Positions 20,121-33,031 are shown, counted from the first letter of the stretch. The stretch is 64,000 nt of DNA from an uncultured Verrucomicrobiota bacterium (GCA_903842505.1 CAIMMI010000351.1:261-64260); one strand, 5' to 3'. Notes: a model not told the origin generated them from the letters alone. Translations and numbers: made by a program.

Positions 20121-21860
20121 ATGGCTGGCGAACCGACAACCGATTCCCTGCTGGAACAGATGGTGGCCGAGCGCCAGCTGTCCGCAGCCGATGCCAGCCT
20201 CCTGCGACAGGGGTTGGGAGGGGCGGCCAATGCTTCGAACGAGGCGGATGTCCTCCGCTGGTTGGCGGGGGAGTATGCCGTGGGGTTCGAGACCCTGGAG
20301 GACATTGATCCGGACAAGGACCTGCTGGCGCGGTTCCCGGCCCGGATCCTCCTCAAGGAAGAGTTGCTTCCGTTGCGGCGGGAGAACGGGCACGTGCAGG
20401 TCGCGACGGCGCGTCTGTTCGCGACGCAGGGCCTGGATGCGCTCAAGTCGCTGACGGGCCTCCGGCTCCAGCCGATCCTGGCGACCCGCGAGGCGATCCA
20501 GCGCGAGATGAAGAAGCGGCTGGGCGTCGGCGCGGACACGCTCGGCACGCTCGGTGAGGAGGCGTCGTTTCAGGTCGTCGATGAGGACGGAACGGAAGGA
20601 ACCGACCTCGATAATGCGGCCGAGGACGCGTCGATCATCCGCTTCGTCAACCAGGTGCTCCGGGATGCCATCGAACTCCGGGCCTCGGACATCCACCTCG
20701 AACCCTTCGAGACCGAGCTGCGGATCCGGTACCGCATCGACGGTGTGCTCCAGGAAGTTCCGGTTCCGGCGCAGATCAAGCGGTTCCAGCCGGCGATTGT
20801 TTCCCGCGTCAAGATCCTATCCCACCTGAACATCGCCGAGAAACGGCTGCCGCAGGACGGCCGGATCAAGATCCGGATCGACGATGCGGAGGTCGACATC
20901 CGCGTGTCGGTGATCCCGATGCTGCACGGCGAGGCGGTCGTCATGCGTCTGCTGCGGCAGAACTCGACGCTGCGGGGGATGGCGGAGCTGGGGTTGAGCG
21001 CGAAGGAACTGAAGAGCTTCAAGCGCGTGCTGGGTTTGCCGCACGGGATCATCCTGGTGACGGGGCCGACGGGCTCGGGCAAGACCTCGACGCTGTACAC
21101 GGCGCTCAATGCGATCAACGACGCGGACACCAAGATCATCACGATCGAGGACCCGATCGAGTACCAGCTGAAGGGGATCAACCAGATCCAGGTTTCGGAG
21201 AAGGCGGGACTGACCTTTGCGCGGGGGCTTCGGGCGATCCTGCGCCACGACCCGGACGTGCTGCTCATCGGCGAAATCCGCGACCAGGAGACGGCGCAGA
21301 TCGCGGTGCAGGCATCGCTGACTGGTCACCTGGTTTTCTCGACGCTTCACACGAACGATGCGCCGGGCGCGTTGACGCGGTTGGTCGACATGGGAGTGGA
21401 GCCCTACCTCGTGGCGTCGTCGCTGGAGGCGGTGCTGGCGCAACGCTTGGTGCGTGTGCTCTGCAAGGAGTGCAAGCAGGTCGACGATTCGCCGGCGGCA
21501 GTTGCGTTGAAGAACGAACTGAAGCTTTCCCCCACCCAGCCGATCTATCGGTCGGTGGGCTGCCGCGAGTGCCGGATGACCGGTTACCATGGTCGGCGGG
21601 CGATCTTCGAGTGGATGGACACCAACCACGAGATCCGGCGGTTGATCCTGAAGAATTCCTCGAGCGGCGAGATCCGTGAAGCAGCACGGCGCGCGGGCAT
21701 GCGGCCGTTGGTCGAAGACGGTTGGCGGTTGGTCTCTGAAGGAGTCACGACGTTGGAAGAAGTGCTGCGCGTGACCAAGGAATCCGCCGATGACGGTCCG
21801 ACGACCGGGGTGGCGGAGATCATGGCGACCACGGCGGCGGCGCAGGCCGAGGAATCCTGA
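20121..21860 (+). CDS. gspE: Type II secretion ATPase GspE
   Basis: N-terminal GSPII_E_N-like domain, Walker A VTGPTGSGKTS, Asp/His boxes, and the tetracysteine CKECKQ...GCRECRMTGYHGR. Confidence 0.9.
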   Translation: MAGEPTTDSLLEQMVAERQLSAADASLLRQGLGGAANASNEADVLRWLAGEYAVGFETLEDIDPDKDLLARFPARILLKEELLPLRRENGHVQVATARLFATQGLDALKSLTGLRLQPILATREAIQREMKKRLGVGADTLGTLGEEASFQVVDEDGTEGTDLDNAAEDASIIRFVNQVLRDAIELRASDIHLEPFETELRIRYRIDGVLQEVPVPAQIKRFQPAIVSRVKILSHLNIAEKRLPQDGRIKIRIDDAEVDIRVSVIPMLHGEAVVMRLLRQNSTLRGMAELGLSAKELKSFKRVLGLPHGIILVTGPTGSGKTSTLYTALNAINDADTKIITIEDPIEYQLKGINQIQVSEKAGLTFARGLRAILRHDPDVLLIGEIRDQETAQIAVQASLTGHLVFSTLHTNDAPGALTRLVDMGVEPYLVASSLEAVLAQRLVRVLCKECKQVDDSPAAVALKNELKLSPTQPIYRSVGCRECRMTGYHGRRAIFEWMDTNHEIRRLILKNSSSGEIREAARRAGMRPLVEDGWRLVSEGVTTLEEVLRVTKESADDGPTTGVAEIMATTAAAQAEES

Positions 21861-21869
21861 GGAACCGCC

Positions 21870-23321
21870 ATGGCATCCTTTCAATACCGGGCCCTCCAGA
21901 ACGACGGCGGCATCGCCGAGGGTTCCCTGGAGGCTCCGAACCGGCAGGAGGCCCTGCGGTTGCTGGGCACGAAGGGGCTGAGGCCGATCCGGCTTTCGGA
22001 TGGCGGGGCAGCCGCTCCGGCGCCGACCCGTCCTTCGGCGGCGACGTCGGCCCGGACTGCAAGCGGTGGATCGGCAGCGTCGGGCGGGAGTGCCGCGGTT
22101 GCGTCCGCGCCCCGGGGCAACGTTCCGAGACCGGGTTCCCGGATTGCGACCATGCCGGCAGCGAAGGCGACCGCGAAGCCGGCTCCGCGTCCGGTTCCCG
22201 CGAAGGCGACGGGTTCGAAAGGTTCCAAGGGCGAGGCAGCGGCTCCGGCGGGTGGCGGGATGAAGCTGAGCCTGGGCGGCCAGAAGATCACGGCGCGCAT
22301 CCTGGAGAACTTCACGCGGTTGCTTTCGAGCCTGCTTTCGGCGGGCGTGCCGTTGAGCCGGGCGCTGGTCATCCTGATGCGCGAGGCGGCCACGCCGGTG
22401 GCGGGCGCGCAGTGGAAGCAGATCCACGACCTGGTGGTGGACGGACTTTCGCTGGCGGAGGCGATGAGTCGGTCGCCGAAGACGTTCCCCCGGGTGTACG
22501 TCGCGATGGTCGAGGCGGGTGAGACCGGCGGGTTCCTCGACGTTGTGCTCGGTCAGATCGCGGACTTCCAGGCGCGGGAGAAGGAGATGCGGGGCAAGGT
22601 CATGACCGCGCTGCTCTACCCGGTCATCCTGCTGATCCTGGCGTTGGGCGTGTTGATCTTCCTGTTGGTGTTCTTCATCCCGCGTTTCCAGACGATCTTC
22701 ACCGGCTTCGGCGCGGAGTTGCCGTTGCTCACGCAGTTGATCGTATCGACGAGCGAGATCCTGCGGTCCTGGGGCATCGTGCTGGCGCTGGGACTGGGGA
22801 TCGGCGCGTTCTTCCTGCGGACGTGGTTCCTCTCCGAACAAGGGCGCCGGATGTGGGAAGGGTTGATCCTGAAGGCGCCGGTGATCGGGCCGCTGGTGGC
22901 GCAGTTCTCGATGTCGCGGTTCTGCCGGATGCTGGGGACTCTGCTGGGCGCGGGCGTGCCGCTGGTGAACGGGTTGAACGTCGCGCGGCGATCGATCGGC
23001 AACCAGATCCTGGTCGATGCCGTCACCAACTCGATCGAACGGGTGAAGGAGGGCAAGCAACTGGGGCCGAGCCTCGGCGATTGCCGGATGCTCTTCTCCG
23101 GCGCGACGCTGGAGATGATCTCGGTGGCCGAGGAAAGCGGTCGGCTGGACCAGGAGTTGGTCCGGATCGCGAACGTGACCGAGGGCGACCTCGACCGGCA
23201 GCTGAAGACGGCGGTGGCGCTGGCCGAGCCGCTCATGCTCTTCCTGATTGCAGGCTTCATCGGCGTCATCTTCATCGGCATGGTGATCCCGATCTTCTCG
23301 TTGCAGGACCACATCAAGTGA
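21870..23321 (+). CDS. gspF: Type II secretion platform protein GspF (with a low-complexity insert)
   Basis: Two GspF repeats (FTRLLSSLLSAGVPLSRAL and FCRMLGTLLGAGVPLVNGL) and three TM segments. There is an Ala/Pro/Ser/Gly-rich insert at about residues 44-130. Confidence 0.9.
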   Translation: MASFQYRALQNDGGIAEGSLEAPNRQEALRLLGTKGLRPIRLSDGGAAAPAPTRPSAATSARTASGGSAASGGSAAVASAPRGNVPRPGSRIATMPAAKATAKPAPRPVPAKATGSKGSKGEAAAPAGGGMKLSLGGQKITARILENFTRLLSSLLSAGVPLSRALVILMREAATPVAGAQWKQIHDLVVDGLSLAEAMSRSPKTFPRVYVAMVEAGETGGFLDVVLGQIADFQAREKEMRGKVMTALLYPVILLILALGVLIFLLVFFIPRFQTIFTGFGAELPLLTQLIVSTSEILRSWGIVLALGLGIGAFFLRTWFLSEQGRRMWEGLILKAPVIGPLVAQFSMSRFCRMLGTLLGAGVPLVNGLNVARRSIGNQILVDAVTNSIERVKEGKQLGPSLGDCRMLFSGATLEMISVAEESGRLDQELVRIANVTEGDLDRQLKTAVALAEPLMLFLIAGFIGVIFIGMVIPIFSLQDHIK

Positions 23322-23351
23322 CCGACTGAACTTTCCGAACCAAATCCGACC

Positions 23352-23798
23352 ATGAAAACGAATCAACGGACTGGAATCCGGCGCGGGCAGCGTTCCGGCT
23401 TCACCCTTATCGAACTGCTGCTGGTGCTGGTGATCCTCGGGATCCTGGCGGCGATCGTCGTGCCAAAGTTCTCCGGCCGTACGGAGCAGGCGCGCGCGAC
23501 GGCGGCGCAGACGCAGATCGCGACCTTTGGAACTGCGCTCGACTCGTTCGAGGTCGACGTGGGCTATTATCCGAAGGGTCGGAACGGCCTGAACGACCTG
23601 TTCACGCAGCCGCGGGACGCGCAGAACTGGCGCGGGCCCTACATCAAGAACGAGATCCCCAAGGATCCGTGGCAGAACGAGTACGTCTACGAATGCCCGG
23701 GCAAGAACAACCCGAGCTCGTACGACCTGTACTCGATGGGACCGGACGGCCGGGCCGGCTCCGAGGACGACATCACGAACTTCAAGACGAAGAAGTAG
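23352..23798 (+). CDS. gspG: Major pseudopilin GspG
   Basis: The prepilin N-terminus is RSGFTLIELLLVLVILGILAAIVVPKF. The GspG core motifs are YYPKG..GLNDLF...WRGPYIK..PKDPWQNEYVYECPG...YDLYSMGPDG. Confidence 0.9.
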   Translation: MKTNQRTGIRRGQRSGFTLIELLLVLVILGILAAIVVPKFSGRTEQARATAAQTQIATFGTALDSFEVDVGYYPKGRNGLNDLFTQPRDAQNWRGPYIKNEIPKDPWQNEYVYECPGKNNPSSYDLYSMGPDGRAGSEDDITNFKTKK

Positions 23799-23803
23799 GG
23801 GCC

Positions 23804-24055
23804 GGGGGAGTTTCAAGATGGAAGGTTCAAGTTTGAAGCCCGCCCGCTGTGGGTAGATCTGGACACTGGCCCCGAAACTGGTGGGGCGAGACTCCGTCAA
23901 GCCGCTCCAGAGAATGAAACAGGCCCGAATCGGCTCGTGAGGACACTCGCCCCACCCCTCGTTGGAGGGCAGTGTGAAGATGCGCTCGCCTGCCGTTGCC
24001 CAGCTCCTTCAAACTGAAAACTGAAAACTTGAATCTCGCCCTTTGAAACTCCCCC
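23804..24055. mobile_element. 252-bp MITE-like composite repeat with 13-bp perfect terminal inverted repeats, inside the T2SS operon
   Basis: The left end GGGGGAGTTTCAA (23804-23816) is the reverse complement of the right end TTGAAACTCCCCC (24043-24055). The interior is A(fwd) 23804-23839, B(rev) 23880-23903, B(fwd) 23932-23956 and A(rev) 24007-24055. It encodes no transposase. Confidence 0.65.
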
Positions 24056-24675
24056 CCCCATCCGCCCGCCGCGGTTTCACGCTGATCGAGCTGATCCTCG
24101 TGATGGCGTTGATCACGGTGGTGATGGCCTTGGTCTCGCCGTCGCTGGGCGGGTTCCTGCGGGGACGTTCGATGCAGTCGGAGGTGAGCCGGTTCATCTC
24201 GCTGACGCACTATGCGCAGGCGCGGGCGGCGCATGAGGGGATCCCGATCCGCCTGTGGGTAGACCCGGAGCTGAGGACGTACGGGATGGCGAGCGAGTAC
24301 GTGCTGGCCCAGTCGGGACAGGATCCGCATCGGCGGGAGTACGAGTTGGCGGCGGATCTGGAGGTGGAGGTGGACACGCGATCGTTCGCCACCCTGCAGG
24401 GAAACAGGCTGGCGTTGCAGGACCGCTGGGCGGCCGGGCAGCCGATGACCGGTGCGGCGACGGGAAGCCGGTCGCAGGTGGTGTTCCGGTTCACGCCGGA
24501 TGGTTTCATCGACGAGACGAGCCCCTTGGGGCTGACGTTCCGTCACAAGCCGCTCGGGGGCGGTTCGATCCGCCGCGGACAGTCCGATCCGCGGGATGAG
24601 GTGTACGTCGGGCAGAACTTGATGCGGCTTCGTTATGAGGTTCAGACCAACCAGATCCAGGCGCCCAGGCGTTGA
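24043..24675 (+). CDS. gspH: Minor pseudopilin, GspH-like
   Basis: MKLPPPSARRGFTLIELILVMALITVVMALVSPSL is a prepilin leader plus hydrophobic helix. TTG 24043 is the only in-frame start after the stop at 24022-24024. Confidence 0.7.
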   Translation: MKLPPPSARRGFTLIELILVMALITVVMALVSPSLGGFLRGRSMQSEVSRFISLTHYAQARAAHEGIPIRLWVDPELRTYGMASEYVLAQSGQDPHRREYELAADLEVEVDTRSFATLQGNRLALQDRWAAGQPMTGAATGSRSQVVFRFTPDGFIDETSPLGLTFRHKPLGGGSIRRGQSDPRDEVYVGQNLMRLRYEVQTNQIQAPRR

Positions 24676-25042
24676 CGGTCGGTCGGGGTTCACCCTGGCG
24701 GAGTCGCTGGCGGCGCTGGCGTTCCTGGCCGTGGTGATTCCCGTGGCGGTGCAGGGCGTTCGCATCGCCAACCTGGCGGGGCAGGTGGCGGAGCGGAAGG
24801 TGGTGGCGGCGCAGGTGGCGGACCGGGTGTTGAATGAGTTGGTGGTGACGGGGCGCTGGAACACGAGCAGCCAGGGCACGGTGGACGAGGGGCGTCACCA
24901 GTTCAGCTGGCGATCAGAAAGCACCTCGTGGGAGCGGGCGACCCTCCGGCAGGCAACGGTCGTCGTGACCTACAAGGTCCAGGGCAAGGAATACGAGGTC
25001 CGGGCCGCGACGATCCTCGATTCCGCACAGGTCCTCCAATGA
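24635..25042 (+). CDS. gspI: Minor pseudopilin, GspI-like
   Basis: RSGFTLAESLAALAFLAVVIPVAV is a prepilin-type N-terminus. At 135 aa the size fits GspI. It overlaps gspH by 41 nt. Confidence 0.65.
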   Translation: MRFRPTRSRRPGVDGRSGFTLAESLAALAFLAVVIPVAVQGVRIANLAGQVAERKVVAAQVADRVLNELVVTGRWNTSSQGTVDEGRHQFSWRSESTSWERATLRQATVVVTYKVQGKEYEVRAATILDSAQVLQ

Positions 25043-25779
25043 GGGTTACCGCCATCCAATCCAGTCGCCGCGGCCGGGGGTTCACGCTCATCGAGCTGCT
25101 CCTCGCCATCACGATTTCGGCGGTGATCCTGGCGGCGGTGAACGCGGTTTTGTTCGGGGCGTTGCGGCTCCGCAACCGGACGGCCCGGATGTTGGAGGAT
25201 GCGGCGGGACGGCAACAGGCGTTGGGAATCCTGAAGCGGGACCTGGCCGGCCTCGTGGCCCCGGCGGGTGAGACCAATCTGGCAGGAGCGTTGGTGTACG
25301 GCGGCATGACGGGCACGACGGATCCGGCGGGAACCGGGATGCAGATGTTCACGACGACGGGGACGACGACCGACTACGCGACCTGGGGTGAACTCCAGAA
25401 GGTGGCGTATGCGCTGCGCGAACCCACCAACAACACGGCGGCCATCGGCCGGGACCTCTGGCGGGTGGTGACGCGCAACCTGCTTCCGCAGTTGAATGCG
25501 ACTTACGAGGAACAACTGCTGCTGACGGATGTCGACCGGTTCGAGCTTTCGTTCTTCGACGGATACAACTGGCGGACGTCCTGGGGCGGCACGAATGAGA
25601 CGGTGGCCTTGCCCCGGGCGGTCCGGGTCGACCTCGTGGTCGCCGAGACGGATCCTGCTGAACGGTCGCGGGGGACGATGGCGAAACGGACCTTGGTTCC
25701 GTTCCAGTTGATCGTGCCGATCCTGGTGACGCCGTCGACGAACACGACGGACACCGCCACCGACGGAGGTCAGCCGTGA
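25039..25779 (+). CDS. gspJ: Minor pseudopilin, GspJ-like
   Basis: ATG 25039 (ATGA overlap with gspI) gives MRVTAIQSSRRGRGFTLIELLLAITISAVILAAV. Length is 246 aa. Confidence 0.65.
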   Translation: MRVTAIQSSRRGRGFTLIELLLAITISAVILAAVNAVLFGALRLRNRTARMLEDAAGRQQALGILKRDLAGLVAPAGETNLAGALVYGGMTGTTDPAGTGMQMFTTTGTTTDYATWGELQKVAYALREPTNNTAAIGRDLWRVVTRNLLPQLNATYEEQLLLTDVDRFELSFFDGYNWRTSWGGTNETVALPRAVRVDLVVAETDPAERSRGTMAKRTLVPFQLIVPILVTPSTNTTDTATDGGQP

Positions 25780-27161
25780 AGATCCCGCAGCCCCTGTCGC
25801 GGTCAGCGAGCCGCGGATCGACGCTCGTGATCGTGCTCTGGGTCGCGCTCGGGTTGGTGAGCCTGGCCCTGTATTTCGGGCATTCGACCGCGTTGGAACT
25901 GCGGTCGGCTGATCATCGGGCCGCCGCGATCGAGGCGGAGCAGGCCATCGCGGGTGCGGCCCGGTTCGCCTGTTACGTGGTGACCAACCTCACCACTCCG
26001 GGAGTCATCACCGACCTGGAGGTCGCGCCGACCTACCGGTACGTGGCCGAGGCGGTTCCCGTGGGCGATGCGAAGTTCTGGTTCATTGGCCGGGATGCCA
26101 ATCGGCAGACGACGGGCATGGGTTCGGCCGATCCGCTGTTGTTCAAGCTGGTGGATGAATCGTCGAAGCTGAACCTGAACACGGCGACGGTCGAGATGCT
26201 GTCGTTGCTCCCACGGATGACCCCGGAGTTGGCCGCGGCGATCGTGGACTGGCGCGATACCAACGAGGAGGTCAGCGACGGCGGAGCGGAGGAGGAGACG
26301 TACGCGCGGTTCAATCCGCCTTACCGCTGCAAGAACGCGCCGTTCGAGTCGGTCGACGAACTCCGGATGGTGGCCGGGATGACGATGTTGATCCTGGCGG
26401 GCGAGGACACGAACCGGAACGGGATCCTGGACCCGAACGAGGATGACCTCGACACCAGCGCGCCGTGGGACAACCGGGATGGCCGGATTGATCCGGGTCT
26501 GCTGGAGTACGTCACGGTTTACTCGAAGGAATCGCAGGTCCGGGCGGACGGGACGGCGAAGATCTCGATCGGGGCCCAAGGACGGCAGGAGCTGGCGACC
26601 CTGCTTTCGGAGAAGTTCAGCGCATCCCGCGGGAACGAGATCCTCGGGGCGTTGGGCAACCCCAACCAGGCGCCGGCAAGTCTTCTGGAATTTTTCGTCC
26701 GGAGCCGGATGACGATCGACGAATTTGTGCAGATCGAAGGGGAATTGACGGCGGCGACGACGCAGCAGCCGGCGACCGGCCTGGTGAACGTCAATTCGGC
26801 CACGGAAGCCTTGCTGGCGTGCATTCCGGGCATCGGCACCGACATGGCGCCGAACCTGGTTTCGTACCGCCGCTCGAATCCGAACCGGCTCAATACGGTG
26901 GCCTGGGTTTCGGAAGTGCTCGAAAGGGATCGGGCCGTGCAAGCTGGGCGTTACCTAACCGGGAGGTCAGCGGTCTACACCGCGGATGTCGCCGGTGTCG
27001 GGCACCTGGGACGGGGTTATCGCCGCGTCCGGTTCGTGATCGACAGCTCGGAGGGCGGTGCCCGGATCGTGCATCGGCAGGACCTGACCCATCTGGGATG
27101 GGCCCTGGGACGGCAGGTGTGGCAGCAACAGGAACAGTTGGTCAGCAGGAACATGCGATGA
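25776..27161 (+). CDS. gspK: Minor pseudopilin GspK-like
   Basis: SRGSTLVIVLWVALGLVSLAL is an N-terminal helix lacking Glu5. There are two helix-hairpin-helix-like segments (LNLNTATVEMLSLLPRMTPELAAAIVDWR and VNVNSATEALLACIPGIGTDMAPNLVSYR). The GTG start overlaps the gspJ stop. Confidence 0.7.
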   Translation: MKIPQPLSRSASRGSTLVIVLWVALGLVSLALYFGHSTALELRSADHRAAAIEAEQAIAGAARFACYVVTNLTTPGVITDLEVAPTYRYVAEAVPVGDAKFWFIGRDANRQTTGMGSADPLLFKLVDESSKLNLNTATVEMLSLLPRMTPELAAAIVDWRDTNEEVSDGGAEEETYARFNPPYRCKNAPFESVDELRMVAGMTMLILAGEDTNRNGILDPNEDDLDTSAPWDNRDGRIDPGLLEYVTVYSKESQVRADGTAKISIGAQGRQELATLLSEKFSASRGNEILGALGNPNQAPASLLEFFVRSRMTIDEFVQIEGELTAATTQQPATGLVNVNSATEALLACIPGIGTDMAPNLVSYRRSNPNRLNTVAWVSEVLERDRAVQAGRYLTGRSAVYTADVAGVGHLGRGYRRVRFVIDSSEGGARIVHRQDLTHLGWALGRQVWQQQEQLVSRNMR

Positions 27162-28600
27162 TCGAACGGCTCAAGAGCTCGCGCAAGCCAGCGGTCCTTG
27201 GCCTCGTCCCGGAAGGGTCGAAGGTCGAGGTCGTTCCCGTGCGCCGTACCAACGGGTCGGCGGAGGCGGGAGCCCCGGTCGTGATCGACCTGGGAGGTGA
27301 CCTCGTCGGCGACGACATCCTGCTTCTGGCGAAACGGCTGCGCGAAGGGCTCGATGCCGCGGGAATCCGCGAGCGTCGGGTGGCGGTGGCGCTGCCCCCG
27401 GGGTGGATCTTCGCGATTTCGACGCCGCTTCCTGATCTTCCGCCGGAGGACCTGGAAAGCTTCCTCGAGTTGGAGGCCGAGCGCGGCTTCCCCTACGGAC
27501 CCGACCAGCTTTCGATCGCCCGTTCGGACTGGGCGTCGCCCGACGGCGTGGCGAACACGTCGATGGTGGCGGTTCCGCGCGAGAACATCGTCCGCCTGGA
27601 GCAGATCCTGAAGCTGGCGCGGCTCCAGCCGGTATCCTTCGCTCCGGCGCTTCCCGAGATGCTGCACTGTGCGGCCGGGCCCGCGGGCCCGCGGGTGGAC
27701 CTGCTGGCGGTCGGTGCCGAGGTCGGGCTCACGGTGGCGGATGGAGAAGGATTGATCGTCCATCGCGCCCTGGAAGGAGTGGTGGCGGTCGAAGGCGGAG
27801 TGAGCCGGGTCGTGCCCGAGCTTCTGGCCCGCGAACTCCGGGTCACGCTCGGTCAATTGCCCGCCGGAGTGCGGGACGCGCTGAAGTCGATCCGCGTGCT
27901 CGGCACGGGGCCGTTGGCGGATGAACTGGCGACGGCCGTTCAGGCGCGGGCCGGGAATCTGCGGTTGGGCGTGGAACGGATCGATCGGCTGGTGCCGGGG
28001 CAACCGGCGGTGCCGAAGATGACGCCGGGCATTGCGCTGAGTCCGGCCCTGGCGATCGCGGCCCGATTCGTCTCCGGAGAGCCGGCTTCGTTCGAGTTCC
28101 TGCCCCCGAAGGTTTCGGCCTTCCAGCAGTTCTCCTCGCGGTATTCGTCCGGCCGCCTGGCGCATGTCGGAATGGTGGCGGGTGCGGTGGCGGCGTTGGT
28201 GCTCCTCGCGTTCCTCGTGCAACAGGTCCGGTTGGTGACGTTGCGGTCGGAGTGGGACTCGATGGCGAAGACGGTCCGCGAGGTCGAGGAGACTCAGGCG
28301 CAATTGAAGAAGTTCCGGCCGTGGTTCGATGAGTCCGTCCGGAGTCTCCTGGTGATGAAGACGCTGACCGAAGCCTTCCCGGAGGATGGGGCGGTAACGG
28401 CGAAGAACGTCGAGATCCGGGACGTGGGCGTCGTGGTCTGTCAGGGAACGGCGCGGGACAGCACGGCGCTGTTGCGGACGCTGGACAAACTGCGGGCCTC
28501 CCGGGAGGTCACCGAAGTCCAGGTCGATCAGTTGCGGGGGAAGTCCCCCCTCCAGTTCACCTTCAATTTCCGTTGGGATGCCTCCGGCCGACAGCCATGA
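27158..28600 (+). CDS. GspL-like assembly protein (PilM-like cytoplasmic domain + TM + PilN-like periplasmic domain)
   Basis: ATG 27158 (ATGA overlap with gspK). The PilM-like stretch is VAVALPPGWIFAISTPLPDLPPEDLESFLELEAERGFPYG. There is a single TM, VGMVAGAVAALVLLAFLV, followed by a coiled periplasmic tail. Confidence 0.5.
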   Translation: MIERLKSSRKPAVLGLVPEGSKVEVVPVRRTNGSAEAGAPVVIDLGGDLVGDDILLLAKRLREGLDAAGIRERRVAVALPPGWIFAISTPLPDLPPEDLESFLELEAERGFPYGPDQLSIARSDWASPDGVANTSMVAVPRENIVRLEQILKLARLQPVSFAPALPEMLHCAAGPAGPRVDLLAVGAEVGLTVADGEGLIVHRALEGVVAVEGGVSRVVPELLARELRVTLGQLPAGVRDALKSIRVLGTGPLADELATAVQARAGNLRLGVERIDRLVPGQPAVPKMTPGIALSPALAIAARFVSGEPASFEFLPPKVSAFQQFSSRYSSGRLAHVGMVAGAVAALVLLAFLVQQVRLVTLRSEWDSMAKTVREVEETQAQLKKFRPWFDESVRSLLVMKTLTEAFPEDGAVTAKNVEIRDVGVVVCQGTARDSTALLRTLDKLRASREVTEVQVDQLRGKSPLQFTFNFRWDASGRQP

Positions 28601-29139
28601 ACCTCGATCCAGAAAAACGTCAGAAGCTGCTGGTGGTCCTCGCCCTGACCGGCGTGGGGCTGCTGGCTGGCGACCGGTTGGTGGTCAGCCCGCTCATCAA
28701 GAGCTGGACGGCCCGCTCCGAGAACATCGCGCAGCTCCAGAAGGACATCGCCAAGGGCCAGCAGTTGCTCGAACGCCGGGACACGGTCCGGTCGCGCTGG
28801 CAGGAGATGCGGACCAACGCCCTGCCCTCCGAGGTCTCAGCCGCCGAAGGCCGCGTCCTGGAAGCCTTCGACCGGTGGTCGCGCGCGGCCAGCGTGAACA
28901 TCACGTCGGTGAAGCCGCAGTGGAAGCAGTCGGATGAGGGCTACATGACGTTCGAGTGCCACGTGGATGCCGCCGGGAGCCTGAGCACCGTGACGCGGTT
29001 CCTCCACGAGGTGGAACGTGACCGGATGGCCATCCGCGTGGAGACCGTTGAACTCGCGGCCCGGGATGCCGACGCCTCCCAGATTTCGGTCGGCCTCCAG
29101 GTGAGCGGCCTCCTCCTCAACCCACCCGCCCAGCGATGA
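28597..29139 (+). CDS. GspM/PilO-like bitopic protein
   Basis: ATG 28597 (ATGA overlap). The TM is KLLVVLALTGVGLLAG, followed by a coiled coil and an alpha/beta C-domain. Position and size fit GspM/PilO. Confidence 0.45.
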   Translation: MNLDPEKRQKLLVVLALTGVGLLAGDRLVVSPLIKSWTARSENIAQLQKDIAKGQQLLERRDTVRSRWQEMRTNALPSEVSAAEGRVLEAFDRWSRAASVNITSVKPQWKQSDEGYMTFECHVDAAGSLSTVTRFLHEVERDRMAIRVETVELAARDADASQISVGLQVSGLLLNPPAQR

Positions 29140-30137
29140 ACCCGACATCCGAAAACCCTTTTGCCGAGGTTCGCCCGGGCCGTATCACCCACGTCCGGTT
29201 CGACGCGGTCCTGCTCTCTTGCCTGCTGGCGTTGGGTGGACTGGGGCATGCCATGGCCCAGACTCCGGACGGGCCACGGGCCGAGGTTCCGGCCGTCGTC
29301 GAGGCCGTGGCCACCGCCTCGGCTGCGGCTGCCGGGGGCGAGGCCGCGTCCGGTCCAGACGAGGCGCAGGCGCCCGACGAGGATTCTGGCTCGGGGGATG
29401 TGCCCGCGAACGCGCAGGCGGACGCCGCCGACGTCGTCGCCGGCGGGACGAATTCACCCGCAGGGTCGACCAATTCTCCGTCGGGCCCGCCTTCCTCCCG
29501 GCGCGAGGGAAGGTCCCGCGAGCGCGGGTCGCGGGATTGGCGGAGTTCTTTCGGCTCGGCTTCGCGATCGAAGTCGGGCGGTACGAACGCCGCCCCCGAG
29601 ATCCCGAAGACGGACTACGCGTACTTCAAGGTCGTCAACGACCGGAACATCTTCAACCCGGCCCGCCAACCGAACCGGCCGGACCGACCGGCGTCCCGCG
29701 AGGTCAAGCGAACGCCCAAGGTGGATGCGTTCTCGCTGGTGGGGACGCTGCGCTACGAAAAGGGCGACATGGCCTTCTTTGACGGTTCGAGCCCGGACTA
29801 TCGCAAGGCCCACAAGGCCGGCGACACGATTGCCGGGTACAAGGTCCTGTCGATTACGGATGCGGCGGTCCGCATCGAGGCGCAGGGCAAGGTCACGGAG
29901 TTGAAGATCGGCTCGCAGATGCGTCGGGAGGACGAAGGTGAATGGGTGTTCGCCGAGGGTCCTTACGCGGGCGGTAGCGGTGGCTCCAGTGGCTCGGGTG
30001 GCTCGACGTCGTCGGGCTCGGGTGAATCCTCCACGGCTTCTGCTTCGACCGGCAGCAGCAGTGGTGGTGGCGGTGCGGATGAAATTTTGAAGAGGCTTCT
30101 GCAGAAGCGCGAACAGGAGATGAAAAATGAGAAGTAA
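29136..30137 (+). CDS. Periplasmic PilP/GspC-like protein with long low-complexity linker (tentative)
   Basis: ATGA overlap with the previous gene. It has an N-terminal anchor, an Ala/Ser/Gly/Pro/Arg-rich linker, then a beta-rich domain KVDAFSLVGTLRYEKGDMAFFDGS...GDTIAGYKVLSITDAAVRIEAQGKVTELKIG of the kind that contacts secretin N0. The C-terminal tail is Gly/Ser-rich. Confidence 0.35.
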   Translation: MNPTSENPFAEVRPGRITHVRFDAVLLSCLLALGGLGHAMAQTPDGPRAEVPAVVEAVATASAAAAGGEAASGPDEAQAPDEDSGSGDVPANAQADAADVVAGGTNSPAGSTNSPSGPPSSRREGRSRERGSRDWRSSFGSASRSKSGGTNAAPEIPKTDYAYFKVVNDRNIFNPARQPNRPDRPASREVKRTPKVDAFSLVGTLRYEKGDMAFFDGSSPDYRKAHKAGDTIAGYKVLSITDAAVRIEAQGKVTELKIGSQMRREDEGEWVFAEGPYAGGSGGSSGSGGSTSSGSGESSTASASTGSSSGGGGADEILKRLLQKREQEMKNEK

Positions 30138-31755
30138 CACGATTCCTTCGATCGTTCTCGCCCTCGTGATGACGGGGGCGGTGCAGGGTCGAGGCCAGGC
30201 CCAGGACGCGACTTCTGCTGCCAAACCGGCGGAGAAGGCTGCCGAACTTCCCGCGGTGGCGCCGACGCCGGCACCCACTCCGGCGGTGAAGGAATCGGAG
30301 AAAGCCCCGCTGCCACCCGAGACACCGCCGCCGGTGGTGCCGGAGGGCATGCTGATGCTGAACTTCCGCGGTGCCCCTCTGGAGACCGTGCTCAACTACC
30401 TGAGCGAGGCCGCGGGATACATCATTGTCGCGGAGACGGAAGTACGGGGGAAGCTGGACGTCATCGCGAAGCAGCCGGTGACGAAGGAAGAAGCCTTCAC
30501 GATCCTGGAGTCCGCCTTGTCTCGGAATGGCTATACCGCCCTCCGCAACGGCCGGACGCTGACGATCGTCAGCAAGGACGGCGCCCGGAAGCGCGACATC
30601 CCGGTCAAGAGCGGCAATGACCCGGAGGCGATCCCCAAGGACGAGCAGATGGTCACCCAGATCATCCCGGTCCGGTTCATCAGCGCCACCCAGTTGACCA
30701 CCGACCTGCAGCCGCTGTTGCCGTCGGAGGCGACGATGACGGCGAATGACGCCGGCAACGCGCTGGTCATCACGGACACGCAGGCCTCCATCCGGCGCCT
30801 GACGGAGATCATCCGAGCGCTCGACACCTCCCTTGCGGGAGCGAATTCGGTGAAGGTCTATCCACTGCGCTTCGCCGATGCGAAGGAACTCGCGGCCGTG
30901 ATCAAGGAGCTGTATCCGGCGCAGGATTCGCGTTCGTCCGCGACGGCCGGTGGTGGCAATCGGGGTGGATTCGGTGGCGGTGGATTTCCGGGCGGAGGTG
31001 GATTCCCGGGTGGCTTTGGTGGCAACCGGGGTGGTGCCACCGCTTCGAGCGGTTCGGGCAATCGCGCGGCAGCTTCGAAGGTGGTCGCCGTGGCGGATGA
31101 GCACAGCAATTCCATCATCGTCAATGCGCCCGAGGATGCGATCCCGGCGATCGAGGAGTTGATCCGTTCCGTGGATACCAATGTCCAGGATGTGACGGAA
31201 CTGCGGGTGTTCAAGCTCCAGTATGCGGACCCGGTGGAGATGTCGGAGGTGTTGGCGGGATTGTTCCCGGACGAGACGAAGACGTCGGGCAATCAGGGAA
31301 ACCAACGTTTTGGCGGTGGTTTCGGGATGTTCGGTGGCGGCGGTCGCACGACGACGGCGAACACCAGCAGCGATCGCGCGAAGAAGAAGGGCAAGGTGAT
31401 CACCGTGCCTGATCAACGCACGAGTTCGATCATCGTCAGTGCCGATCGCGAGATGATGGATCAGATCGGCGAGATGGTGAAGCAGTTGGACTCGAACCCG
31501 GCGCGGAAGCAGAAGGTTTACGTCTACGATCTCCAGAACGCCGATCCGCAACAGGTGCAGGAGGTGTTGCGTGGCTTGTTCGAGAGCCAGAACACCCAGA
31601 ACCGGTCGACGCAGAACCGGAACCAGAACAGCGCTTTGACGACGCGCTCGACGCAACAGCAGCAGCAGAACAACAACCGCAATACCGGCTCCGGCTTCGG
31701 CGGGGGCAACAACGGTGGCGGCGGTGGTGCCGCCGGTGGCGGATTCGGCCGCTGA
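30127..31755 (+). CDS. gspD: Secretin, N-terminal part only (signal peptide, N0, three complete N domains, first half of a fourth)
   Basis: The N0 domain is LMLNFRGAPLETVLNYLSEAAGYIIV...LTIVSKD. The repeated N domains are VTQIIPVRFISATQL..., VKVYPLRFADAKEL...SIIVNAPEDAIPAIEELIRSVD and LRVFKLQYADPVEM...SIIVSADREMMDQIGEMVKQLD. It ends KVYVYDLQNADPQQVQEVLRGLFES plus a Q/N/G-rich tail. There is no pore domain. Confidence 0.8.
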   Translation: MRSNTIPSIVLALVMTGAVQGRGQAQDATSAAKPAEKAAELPAVAPTPAPTPAVKESEKAPLPPETPPPVVPEGMLMLNFRGAPLETVLNYLSEAAGYIIVAETEVRGKLDVIAKQPVTKEEAFTILESALSRNGYTALRNGRTLTIVSKDGARKRDIPVKSGNDPEAIPKDEQMVTQIIPVRFISATQLTTDLQPLLPSEATMTANDAGNALVITDTQASIRRLTEIIRALDTSLAGANSVKVYPLRFADAKELAAVIKELYPAQDSRSSATAGGGNRGGFGGGGFPGGGGFPGGFGGNRGGATASSGSGNRAAASKVVAVADEHSNSIIVNAPEDAIPAIEELIRSVDTNVQDVTELRVFKLQYADPVEMSEVLAGLFPDETKTSGNQGNQRFGGGFGMFGGGGRTTTANTSSDRAKKKGKVITVPDQRTSSIIVSADREMMDQIGEMVKQLDSNPARKQKVYVYDLQNADPQQVQEVLRGLFESQNTQNRSTQNRNQNSALTTRSTQQQQQNNNRNTGSGFGGGNNGGGGGAAGGGFGR

Positions 31756-31783
31756 TCTTCAAAAACCTTTCACGGAATCGACG

Positions 31784-33031
31784 ATGAAATCCCATTCCTT
31801 TCCCACCCAGGCCCTCGGCGCAGGCCTCGCGATGGTCCTGGCCGTATCCGCCTTCGCCCAGTTCCAGGGCGGCGGCGGCAACACCGGCCGTCGGACAGCC
31901 ACGGGCGGCGGCGGTGGCGGCGGCTCGACCCGCGAGTACCCGAACAACACCCAGGTGGGTGATGCCACCATCTCCTACGATCCCGAGACCCGGAAGATCA
32001 TCGTCATCACCGACGAGGAGACGAACATCCAGATCAAGGACGTCATCACCAGCCTCGACAACCCGCGTCCGCAGGTGCTGATCAAGGTCGTATTCCTGGA
32101 GGTGACCCATAACAACAGCTCCGACATCGGCGTCGAGGGCGGCTACGTGCGGCAGTTGGGCAACACGGGACAAGGCTCCGTCGCCAACGCATTTGGAGCC
32201 TCGGCGATCAGCAGTTCCGCAACGTCGGCCGTTCCCAATGTGCTGGGTCAGAATGTCCAGAACATGCTCCCGACGCCTCCCGGCGCGGGGCTGTACCAAG
32301 TGTTGGGCTCGGACTTCCAGGCCACGCTCCGGGCCATCGCCCAGGCGGGCAAGGCGGAGATCCTGTCCCGCCCGTCGATCCTGGCCCGCAACAACCAACC
32401 GGCGACCATCTCGCTCGGTCAGCAGGTGCCGCTCGTTTCCAACACCCGCTTCGACACCATCAACGGTCAGATCAACACCGTCACTTACCAGAACGTCGGC
32501 ATCATCCTTCGTGTGACGCCGTTCATCACGCCGGATGGCATGGTGGAGATGATCGTTGCGCCAGAGACCTCCTCGCTGGCGGATCGTTCCAGCTGGGTGC
32601 CGATCTCCAAGGACGCCCTCGCACCCGTCGTGAACTCACGCCTCGCGGATACCGTGGTGGTCGTGCCCGATGGCCAGACGGTCGTCATCGGCGGTCTGAT
32701 GCAGACCCAGATCACCGAGTCCGAAAGCAAGATCCCGCTGCTCGGTGATATCCCGTACCTGGGAAATGCCTTCAAACGGAAGATCAAGCAGAACCAGAAG
32801 ACCGAGCTGATGATCTTCCTGACGCCGGTGGTGATCCCGGCCCCGGGCGCACTCGCCGGTCTGACTGCCGACGAACGGGCGAAGACCACCCTCAAGCCCA
32901 AGTCGATCCCGCAGAGCGAGCTCGACTCCCTCATCGACACGCTCCCCGTGAAGCCCGAGGTCCCCGTCCAGCCGTTGTCGACCGGCCCCGAGCCCACCGC
33001 CAAGGACAAGAAGAAGAAGTCGGGGAAGTAG
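31784..33031 (+). CDS. gspD: Secretin, C-terminal part (own signal peptide, half N domain, secretin pore domain)
   Basis: ATG 31784 gives MKSHSFPTQALGAGLAMVLAVSAFA-Q, then ATISYDPETRKIIVITDEETNIQIKDVITSLD. The secretin core is VLIKVVFLEV...AEILSRPSILARNNQPATISLGQQVP...IPLLGDIPYLGNAFK...ELMIFLTPVVI. Confidence 0.8.
   Translation: MKSHSFPTQALGAGLAMVLAVSAFAQFQGGGGNTGRRTATGGGGGGGSTREYPNNTQVGDATISYDPETRKIIVITDEETNIQIKDVITSLDNPRPQVLIKVVFLEVTHNNSSDIGVEGGYVRQLGNTGQGSVANAFGASAISSSATSAVPNVLGQNVQNMLPTPPGAGLYQVLGSDFQATLRAIAQAGKAEILSRPSILARNNQPATISLGQQVPLVSNTRFDTINGQINTVTYQNVGIILRVTPFITPDGMVEMIVAPETSSLADRSSWVPISKDALAPVVNSRLADTVVVVPDGQTVVIGGLMQTQITESESKIPLLGDIPYLGNAFKRKIKQNQKTELMIFLTPVVIPAPGALAGLTADERAKTTLKPKSIPQSELDSLIDTLPVKPEVPVQPLSTGPEPTAKDKKKKSGK

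Follow-up and report, generated by a model that had tools for sequence, protein, structure and literature searches.

Type II and type III secretion, type IV pili and filamentous phage export all use secretins, giant gates in the outer membrane that are almost always treated as single-chain proteins. The 64,000-nucleotide (nt) stretch of DNA analysed here, hereafter the window, comes from an uncultured Verrucomicrobiota bacterium (GCA_903842505.1 CAIMMI010000351.1:261-64260) and carries, at the end of an operon for a type II secretion system (T2SS), two neighbouring open reading frames (ORFs), ORF A and ORF B, each of which resembles a different part of the T2SS secretin GspD. Are these two genes for one secretin, or the remains of a single broken gene? 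An earlier reading made from this sequence alone (the sequence-only reading) held that they make one secretin, cut inside an N domain, with a new signal peptide on the second half; it placed the two ORFs correctly, in different frames and separated by a stop codon and 28 nt. We found the conserved fission itself to be close to certain, and we put at about 0.8 the probability that both genes are functional and that their products make up one secretin through domain complementation.

The domain set of a GspD, namely N0, Secretin_N domains and a C-terminal Secretin domain, was found only in ORF A and ORF B combined. By Pfam, ORF A carries N0 and three Secretin_N stretches, and the half of a fourth domain and the Q/N/G-rich tail that the sequence-only reading had described after them are indeed there. 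ORF B likewise carries what that reading had assigned to it: a signal-peptide-like N-terminus with a Gly-rich tract, the missing second half of the domain, which in a Pfam scan of the whole protein appeared as a sub-threshold Secretin_N match limited to profile positions 26-69, and the pore-forming domain. The two proteins also divide between them TIGR02517, the NCBIfam equivalog model of GspD (600 positions, curated cut-off 351.35 bits). ORF A covers positions 1-335 with 245.7 bits and ORF B positions 271-599 with 242.4 bits, so that each alone stays under the cut-off while jointly they span positions 1-599. P0289, an unsplit relative, passes with 442.8 bits over positions 1-594. The best 120 database homologues of ORF A are 448-583 aa long, bar one fragment of 360 aa, and none of them contains a Secretin pore domain; those of ORF B are almost all 384-462 aa long, with four shorter fragments. 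The nearest solved relatives of ORF B are the T2SS secretins XcpQ, ExeD, GspD and PulD, the closest ones being 15-mer GspDs.

The break lies in the long low-complexity loop between the β1-α1 and the β2-β3-α2 parts of the N domain adjacent to the pore. The last 83 residues of ORF A matched positions 2-26 of Pfam Secretin_N (20.1 bits) and the mature N-terminus of ORF B matched positions 25-69 (19.5 bits); when the two were joined with the loop deleted, the match extended over positions 2-69 of 69 and rose to 43.2 bits, against a cut-off of 28.2. In a collinear alignment of A plus B with unsplit relatives, the stop, spacer and signal peptide all map to the interior of a long Gly/Asn/Ser-rich loop of those relatives. 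The A tail continues past α1 for a median of 53 aa and the B linker precedes β2 by a median of 33 aa, giving a median sum of 87 aa; 25 unsplit relatives, in which the loop is unbroken, show a median loop length of 88 aa (range 79-101). Since these lengths match, an existing loop was simply bisected. ORF B aligns with solved GspDs from within their N3/secretin junction, and therefore the split domain is the equivalent of N3, the N domain beside the pore. The tiling of the domain model, the alignment and loop lengths and the structure model described below all agree with the sequence-only reading on this point.

Long Gly/Asn/Gln-rich α1-β2 loops (42 to about 90 aa) are a general feature of this protein, being present in three of the four Secretin_N-type domains, that is N domain 2 (window 30916-31077, ORF A aa 264-317), N domain 3 (window 31267-31392, ORF A aa 381-422) and the split one, and missing from N domain 1. 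Unsplit Phycisphaerae-type relatives have such long low-complexity loops too.

We scanned one genome per species and obtained 80 loci, 78 of which include upstream DNA. In all 78, an A-type gene lies directly 5' of a B-type gene with a stop codon between them, and not one of these orthologous loci from different species holds a fused ORF, a recurrence far beyond chance. The relative frame of the two ORFs can be 0, 1 or 2, and the spacer, 10-58 nt long in 56 of the 78 loci, ranges overall between 1 nt and over 200 nt. All 78 species keep two motifs, KVFVYxLxNAD...VLxxLF in the A tail and ATISxDPETRKIIVITDEETN...LD in the B head. Within the best 120 homologues of each half, identity falls to about 50-60%, and with the surveyed loci included both halves are conserved to about 40-50%. 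One of the loci, L001, is part of a closed Limisphaerales chromosome of 7.9 Mb, and its ORF B is 95% identical to that of the window. The titles of the loci are nearly all verrucomicrobial (Limisphaerales, Pedosphaera, Chthoniobacterales, Opitutaceae, Verrucomicrobiales).

Some loci of the survey deserve separate mention. The two halves are 809 nt apart in L020 and 200-260 nt apart in L030, L037, L040 and L062. In L074 (6001-6982), the B half is broken into two frames, which is a pseudogene or an assembly error in that metagenome-assembled genome (MAG). Thirteen loci of verrucomicrobial type (L002, L006, L007, L017, L019, L027, L030, L040, L041, L046, L048, L061 and L063) are titled Cyanophyceae, Kapaibacterium, Akkermansia muciniphila, Haliangiales, Bifidobacterium, Victivallales, Limnocylindria/Limnocylindrales, Binatia, Dongiaceae or Klebsiella; these contigs are likely mis-binned or come from MAGs with wrong labels.

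In an exhaustive search of representatives, the first full-length protein appeared at rank 34 (P0273, 895 aa), and its close homologues carry Planctomycetota/Phycisphaerae names (Humisphaera borealis, Tepidisphaeraceae, Phycisphaerales). These unsplit Phycisphaerae-type GspDs (P0420 of Humisphaera borealis, P0273 and P0289) are the nearest unsplit relatives, 37-41% identical to the B half by BLASTP. Their domains come in the identical order, the last N domain again being long-looped, and their operon order is also the same; the window shares it with L081, the locus of P0289. They differ in being encoded by one ORF of 814-1100 aa in which the loop of about 88 aa is unbroken and no internal signal peptide is present. 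In a neighbour-joining tree of the pore region, the 39 split representatives (50% identity clusters) form one clade, which fits a single old fission; its unsplit sister sequences bear Phycisphaerae names.

Outside this main split clade we observed a further split pair, that of P0313 in locus L085 (858-3319). Its A-type gene encodes 462 aa, the last of them being β1-α1 and a tail of 35 aa; a strong AAGGAGG site lies in the 38-nt spacer before the B-type gene, which begins with a signal peptide and then β2-β3-α2, with a pore half of only 344 aa. The nearest relatives of the L085 B half are all unsplit (55-61% identity, versus 38-48% to the verrucomicrobial split clade), which points to an independent second fission. 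Thus, by distance-based reasoning on one contig, L085 apparently represents a second cut at the same α1-β2 loop. Representatives of 480-590 aa were also considered as other split points and rejected; they are mostly N-terminally truncated gene calls in which the last N domain is complete. The search also returned giant predicted proteins of 3,400-5,300 aa (one of 1,666 aa) with a C-terminal secretin pore domain 34-47% identical to ORF B (P0341, P0346, P0357, P0358, P0361, P0362, P0370, P0372, P0378, P0381 and P0385; also P0292). Such a very long N-terminal region fused to a secretin is unusual.

ORF B begins with a basic n-region and a hydrophobic core followed by A-x-A and then Q, and conforms, by a heuristic rule, to the pattern of a Sec type I signal peptide (basic n-region, h-region of 7-15 residues, small residues at -3/-1, no lipobox Cys). 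All B halves share the basic n-region, the hydrophobic core and x-A (x-G in L077) followed by Q, so that both the split and the second signal-peptide-like N-terminus of the sequence-only reading recur in related genomes. This Q, Q26 in ORF B (31859-31861), is invariant in our alignment A1, and the next residue is usually F or Q. A strict -3/-1 regular expression was passed by 58 of 77 loci and under-calls signal peptides, as the other 19 fail it nearly only by the residue at -3 (L, I, E, P, R, F or S), L077 having a G at -1 in addition. No lipobox was found in the B halves of the 77 loci. Taken together, these features strongly suggest that ORF B is exported. Being the first residue of the predicted mature protein, Q26 could cyclise to pyroglutamate after cleavage.

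We then modelled with AlphaFold2 a 274-aa construct in which an intact N domain 3, serving as internal control, is followed by the A tail and the B head, using an alignment of whole A-type, B-type and unsplit proteins. The control showed the order β-α-loop-β-β-α with a predicted local distance difference test score (pLDDT) of 85-92. The split domain showed the same topology, at pLDDT 86-89 in the part from A, which forms a strand and a helix, and 82-88 in the part from B; the loop bearing the junction stayed below 50. A single-sequence prediction of a longer construct of A tail and B was uninformative (mean pLDDT 33.8). The best Foldseek matches of the model were T2SS secretins, ExeD, GspD, PulD and XcpQ, over about 255 aligned columns. 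Covariation between the A tail and the B head was 0.308, the top of nine half-domain combinations, compared with 0.234 and 0.268 within the two intact domains and 0.04-0.23 for non-cognate pairs. The model, the covariation and the conservation of the motifs suggest that A and B reassemble in the periplasm.

How else could the locus be explained? An indel introduced by sequencing or assembly into the Q/N/G-coding repeat tract, or a recent pseudogenisation of a single gspD, would produce two such ORFs; the break does lie in a low-complexity, GC-rich tract where indels are common, and the orthologous MAG locus L074 does have a frameshifted B half. The sequence-only reading had itself named such an artefact, a recent pseudogene or a continuous orthologue as what would overturn it. 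However, none of the 78 independent assemblies and species is fused and their frames and spacer lengths vary, which excludes an assembly frameshift and a recent pseudogene. Every B half opens with a start codon (ATG, or GTG or TTG in three loci) and a signal-peptide-like sequence which the unsplit relatives do not have at that place, and the conservation of both halves and the closed chromosome of L001 also speak against an artefact, leaving this explanation with practically no chance. Programmed frameshifting or readthrough of the stop codon might instead yield a single polypeptide from the two ORFs. They are adjacent, the spacer is short and no terminator-like site was found between them on the + strand; on the other hand, no frame relationship is conserved, which argues against recoding. 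With all three relative frames occurring, a spacer of 1 to more than 200 nt and at least one stop always in between, a conserved slippery or structured element is not expected, and the conserved hydrophobic segment that resembles a signal peptide would have no use, and would probably do harm, in a periplasmic protein made as a fusion. We consider recoding highly improbable.

It is less easy to dispose of the idea that both genes are functional without complementing each other, B alone forming a pore with a vestigial half-domain and A serving as a free periplasmic ring, as an adaptor or in another role. Strong conservation of both half-domain motifs in 78 species would be expected if each half needs the other to fold, the joined halves score as one complete Secretin_N domain, the cognate halves show the highest covariation, AlphaFold2 puts both halves in a confident N-domain topology, and the genes are adjacent in essentially all loci; we thus judge independent roles to be unlikely. 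Several points weigh against reassembly of the two halves and against a single old fission as we read them. The AlphaFold2 chain was covalently joined, only unsplit relatives span the junction in the underlying alignment, and the result was read as pLDDT and secondary structure rather than as contacts. The Foldseek TM-scores were low, 0.2-0.3, because about 90 residues of the model are disordered. Covariation was also raised, to about 0.23, between neighbouring non-cognate halves, showing that shared phylogeny contributes to the signal. The neighbour-joining tree is crude, and the taxon names were taken from the titles of MAG records, some of which are clearly wrong. With these points considered, we still infer that B is exported, that A and B complement each other in trans and that the assembled pore functions.

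The explanation that we favour is an ancient, fixed fission of a T2SS gspD with both products functional, which probably came about and works as follows. The ancestral GspD would have resembled the Phycisphaerae type, with N0, four N domains and a pore domain, the last N domain having a disordered loop of about 88 aa. That loop would have acquired a stop codon, a short spacer and a new signal peptide of the Sec type in a lineage ancestral to a large verrucomicrobial clade. A single operon mRNA would serve for translation of both polypeptides, each of which would then be exported on its own. Once in the periplasm, the pore-half would have its β2-β3-α2 head completed by the β1-α1 tail of the N-half, giving a non-covalent N3-like domain. 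This domain would link the outer-membrane pore, in a ratio of one to one, with the periplasmic rings formed by N0 to N domain 3, and these rings would dock to the GspC-like protein and the inner-membrane platform.

The setting of the two genes is that of a T2SS secretin. Genes for the E ATPase, the F platform, the G major pseudopilin and the H-K minor pseudopilins lie directly upstream on the same strand, ORF A and ORF B are the final genes of the complete T2SS operon, and the next gene downstream is on the opposite strand. The stop of the GspC-like gene overlaps the start of ORF A by 11 nt. By their weak profile matches, the proteins of 333 aa and 480 aa are probably divergent GspC and GspL analogues. 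A scan of the locus for promoters and terminators gave nothing beyond the shuffled expectation. The coordinates of all features are collected in the table.

Table. Features of the split secretin locus and of the operon upstream of it, in window coordinates (the last row refers to the plasmid pNGR234a, used for comparison)
Feature	Position	Strand	Residues or size	Basis or remark
ORF A	30127..31755	+	542 aa	TGA stop at 31753-31755
Signal peptide		+	ORF A about aa 1-25	N-terminus of ORF A
N0		+	ORF A aa 78-142	Pfam, GspD-type N0 (PF21305)
N domain 1		+	ORF A aa 178-233	Pfam Secretin_N
N domain 2		+	ORF A aa 241-350	Pfam Secretin_N; Gly-rich loop at 264-317
N domain 3		+	ORF A aa 358-455	Pfam Secretin_N
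A-tail half-domain, β1-α1, QKVYVYDLQNADPQQVQEVLRGLF	31510..31581	+	ORF A aa 462-485	Pfam Secretin_N positions 2-26; pore-proximal N domain (N3 equivalent)
Q/N/G-rich C-terminal tail	31582..31752	+	57 aa	Proximal part of ancestral α1-β2 loop; AlphaFold2 pLDDT <50
Fission point (ORF A TGA and 28-nt spacer to ORF B ATG)	31753..31783	+		Sequence
ORF B	31784..33031	+	415 aa	
Signal-peptide-like N-terminus, MKSHSFPTQALGAGLAMVLAVSAFA	31784..31858	+	ORF B aa 1-25	Predicted cleavage before Q26
Gly-rich linker	31859..31960	+	ORF B aa 26-59	Mature N-terminus; distal part of ancestral loop; pLDDT <50
B-head half-domain, β2-β3-α2, DATISYDPETRKIIVITDEETNIQIKDVITSLD	31961..32059	+	ORF B aa 60-92	Pfam Secretin_N positions 25-69; highly conserved
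Pore-forming secretin domain and basic C-terminal tail	32060..33031	+		Pfam Secretin; TIGR02517
First secretin strand, RPQVLIKVVFLEVTH	32066-32110	+		Within ORF B pore domain
Pfam Secretin match	32333-32836	+	ORF B aa 184-351	E-value 2e-49
Upstream part of T2SS operon	20121..30137	+		Pfam matches; weak NCBIfam GspC_delta and PilM matches; gene order as L081
gspE	20121-21860	+		Pfam T2SSE
gspF	21870-23321	+		Pfam T2SSF
gspG	23352-23798	+		Pfam T2SSG
gspH	24043-24675	+		Pfam GspH
gspI	24635-25042	+		Pfam T2SSI
gspJ	24928-25779	+		Pfam T2SSJ
gspK	25776-27161	+		Pfam T2SSK
PilM/GspL-like gene	about 27158-28600	+	480 aa	Weak NCBIfam PilM match
GspM_b-like gene	28573-29139	+		Operon position between PilM/GspL-like and GspC-like genes
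GspC-like gene	29136-30137	+	333 aa	Weak GspC_delta match, 23.7 bits
RhcC2 locus	L084 21093-23096 = pNGR234a record 96093-98096			pilus-N + BON + Secretin

What the periplasmic N rings, notably N3, contribute to assembling and gating the pore is under study. If a T2SS secretin naturally consists of two chains, the pore module and the periplasmic vestibule can be synthesised and exported apart from each other, presumably to be joined via one small domain. Such a secretin would offer a system in which to dissect the order of secretin assembly and what N3 does in it, a case from nature of split-domain complementation in the periplasm, and a parallel in bacteria to the half-N-domain proteins found in the mitochondrial T2SS. 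Genomes with a split GspD may moreover be scored as having no proper GspD or no T2SS, because neither half reaches the cut-off of the GspD equivalog.

Among known systems, the canonical single-chain GspDs (PulD, XcpQ, EpsD, ExeD) are alike in having an operon of gspE-K with L-, M- and C-like genes and the same domain types in the same order, and GspD-family structures solved by cryo-electron microscopy are the best match by sequence and structure. The verrucomicrobial GspD differs from them in its two polypeptides and two signal peptides, one extra N domain and the long loops in three of its four Secretin_N-type domains. In the literature searched, whose coverage was incomplete, we did not find a bacterial T2SS secretin split within a domain and throughout a phylum, nor any account of bacterial T2SS secretins in two pieces, and a T2SS secretin cut within its N3-like domain, provided with a second signal peptide, fixed in a large verrucomicrobial clade and apparently recurrent, appears to be undescribed. 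The broader claim of the sequence-only reading, that no two-polypeptide secretin of this kind had been characterised, does not hold for two-polypeptide secretins in general, since two kinds have been published, RhcC1/RhcC2 (PMC3574062, PMC3973906) and the mitochondrial GspD with GspDN1-3 (PMC8134430), neither of which is a bacterial T2SS secretin split inside a domain.

In type III secretion systems (T3SS) that belong to the Rhc family, SctC is encoded as rhcC1 (nolW) and rhcC2, a "split secretin" whose significance was stated as unknown (PMC3574062, PMC3973906). As in the window, a bacterial secretin comes from two genes, and both products have N-terminal hydrophobic leader-like sequences. 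The system is a T3SS rather than a T2SS, however, and on pNGR234a the two genes lie about 11.6 kb apart on opposite strands, split between complete domains, whereas the split in the window is inside a domain with the genes 28 nt apart. On pNGR234a, NolW (RhcC1) has 234 aa with complete N0 and N1, its N0 matching the T3S_SPI-1 N0 model weakly (21.9 bits, cut-off 27), and RhcC2 (Y4xJ) has 475 aa and is of the Tad/CpaC type (pilus-N, BON and Secretin), encoded beside a CpaD-family gene. The Rhc "split secretin" may thus be a chimera of an N-terminal remnant of SctC and a recruited Tad secretin, not a simple fission. The marks of the Rhc type, a T3SS cluster with an SctC-type N0 and a split between whole domains in distant genes, are not those of the window locus.

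In the mitochondrial T2SS of jakobids, heteroloboseans and malawimonads, the secretin is made in pieces, GspD, GspDL and GspDN1-3, of which GspDN3 corresponds to the N-terminal half of an N domain and GspDN2 to its C-terminal half (PMC8134430). It resembles the verrucomicrobial secretin in consisting of several polypeptides with half-N-domain pieces, and differs in being eukaryotic, far more fragmented and devoid of N0, the S domain and part of the pore domain. We built profiles of GspDN2 and GspDN3 from the sequences in the supplement of PMC8134430. The GspDN2 profile maps exactly to the position of the B head, which comprises the last N domain's second half together with the first secretin strand, with 24.2 bits on the proteobacterial ExeD versus 13-23 bits on proteins of the Planctomycetes-Verrucomicrobia-Chlamydiae group; matches of the GspDN3 profile were not significant. 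We looked for a specific ancestry of GspDN2/GspDN3 with the verrucomicrobial clade and found none, GspDN2 scoring as well on proteobacterial GspD. Judged by these profiles, the mitochondrial and verrucomicrobial breaks are positionally equivalent, and nothing indicates a shared ancestry. One could imagine the α1-β2 loop as a natural seam that was severed on at least three independent occasions (once each in the verrucomicrobial clade, in L085 and between mitochondrial GspDN3 and GspDN2) or, in the boldest version, a mitochondrial GspD that came from a bacterial T2SS already split there; we regard this as a long shot. Were the boldest version true, the split systems of bacteria would be relatives, or living models, of the forerunner from which the secretion apparatus of mitochondria descends.

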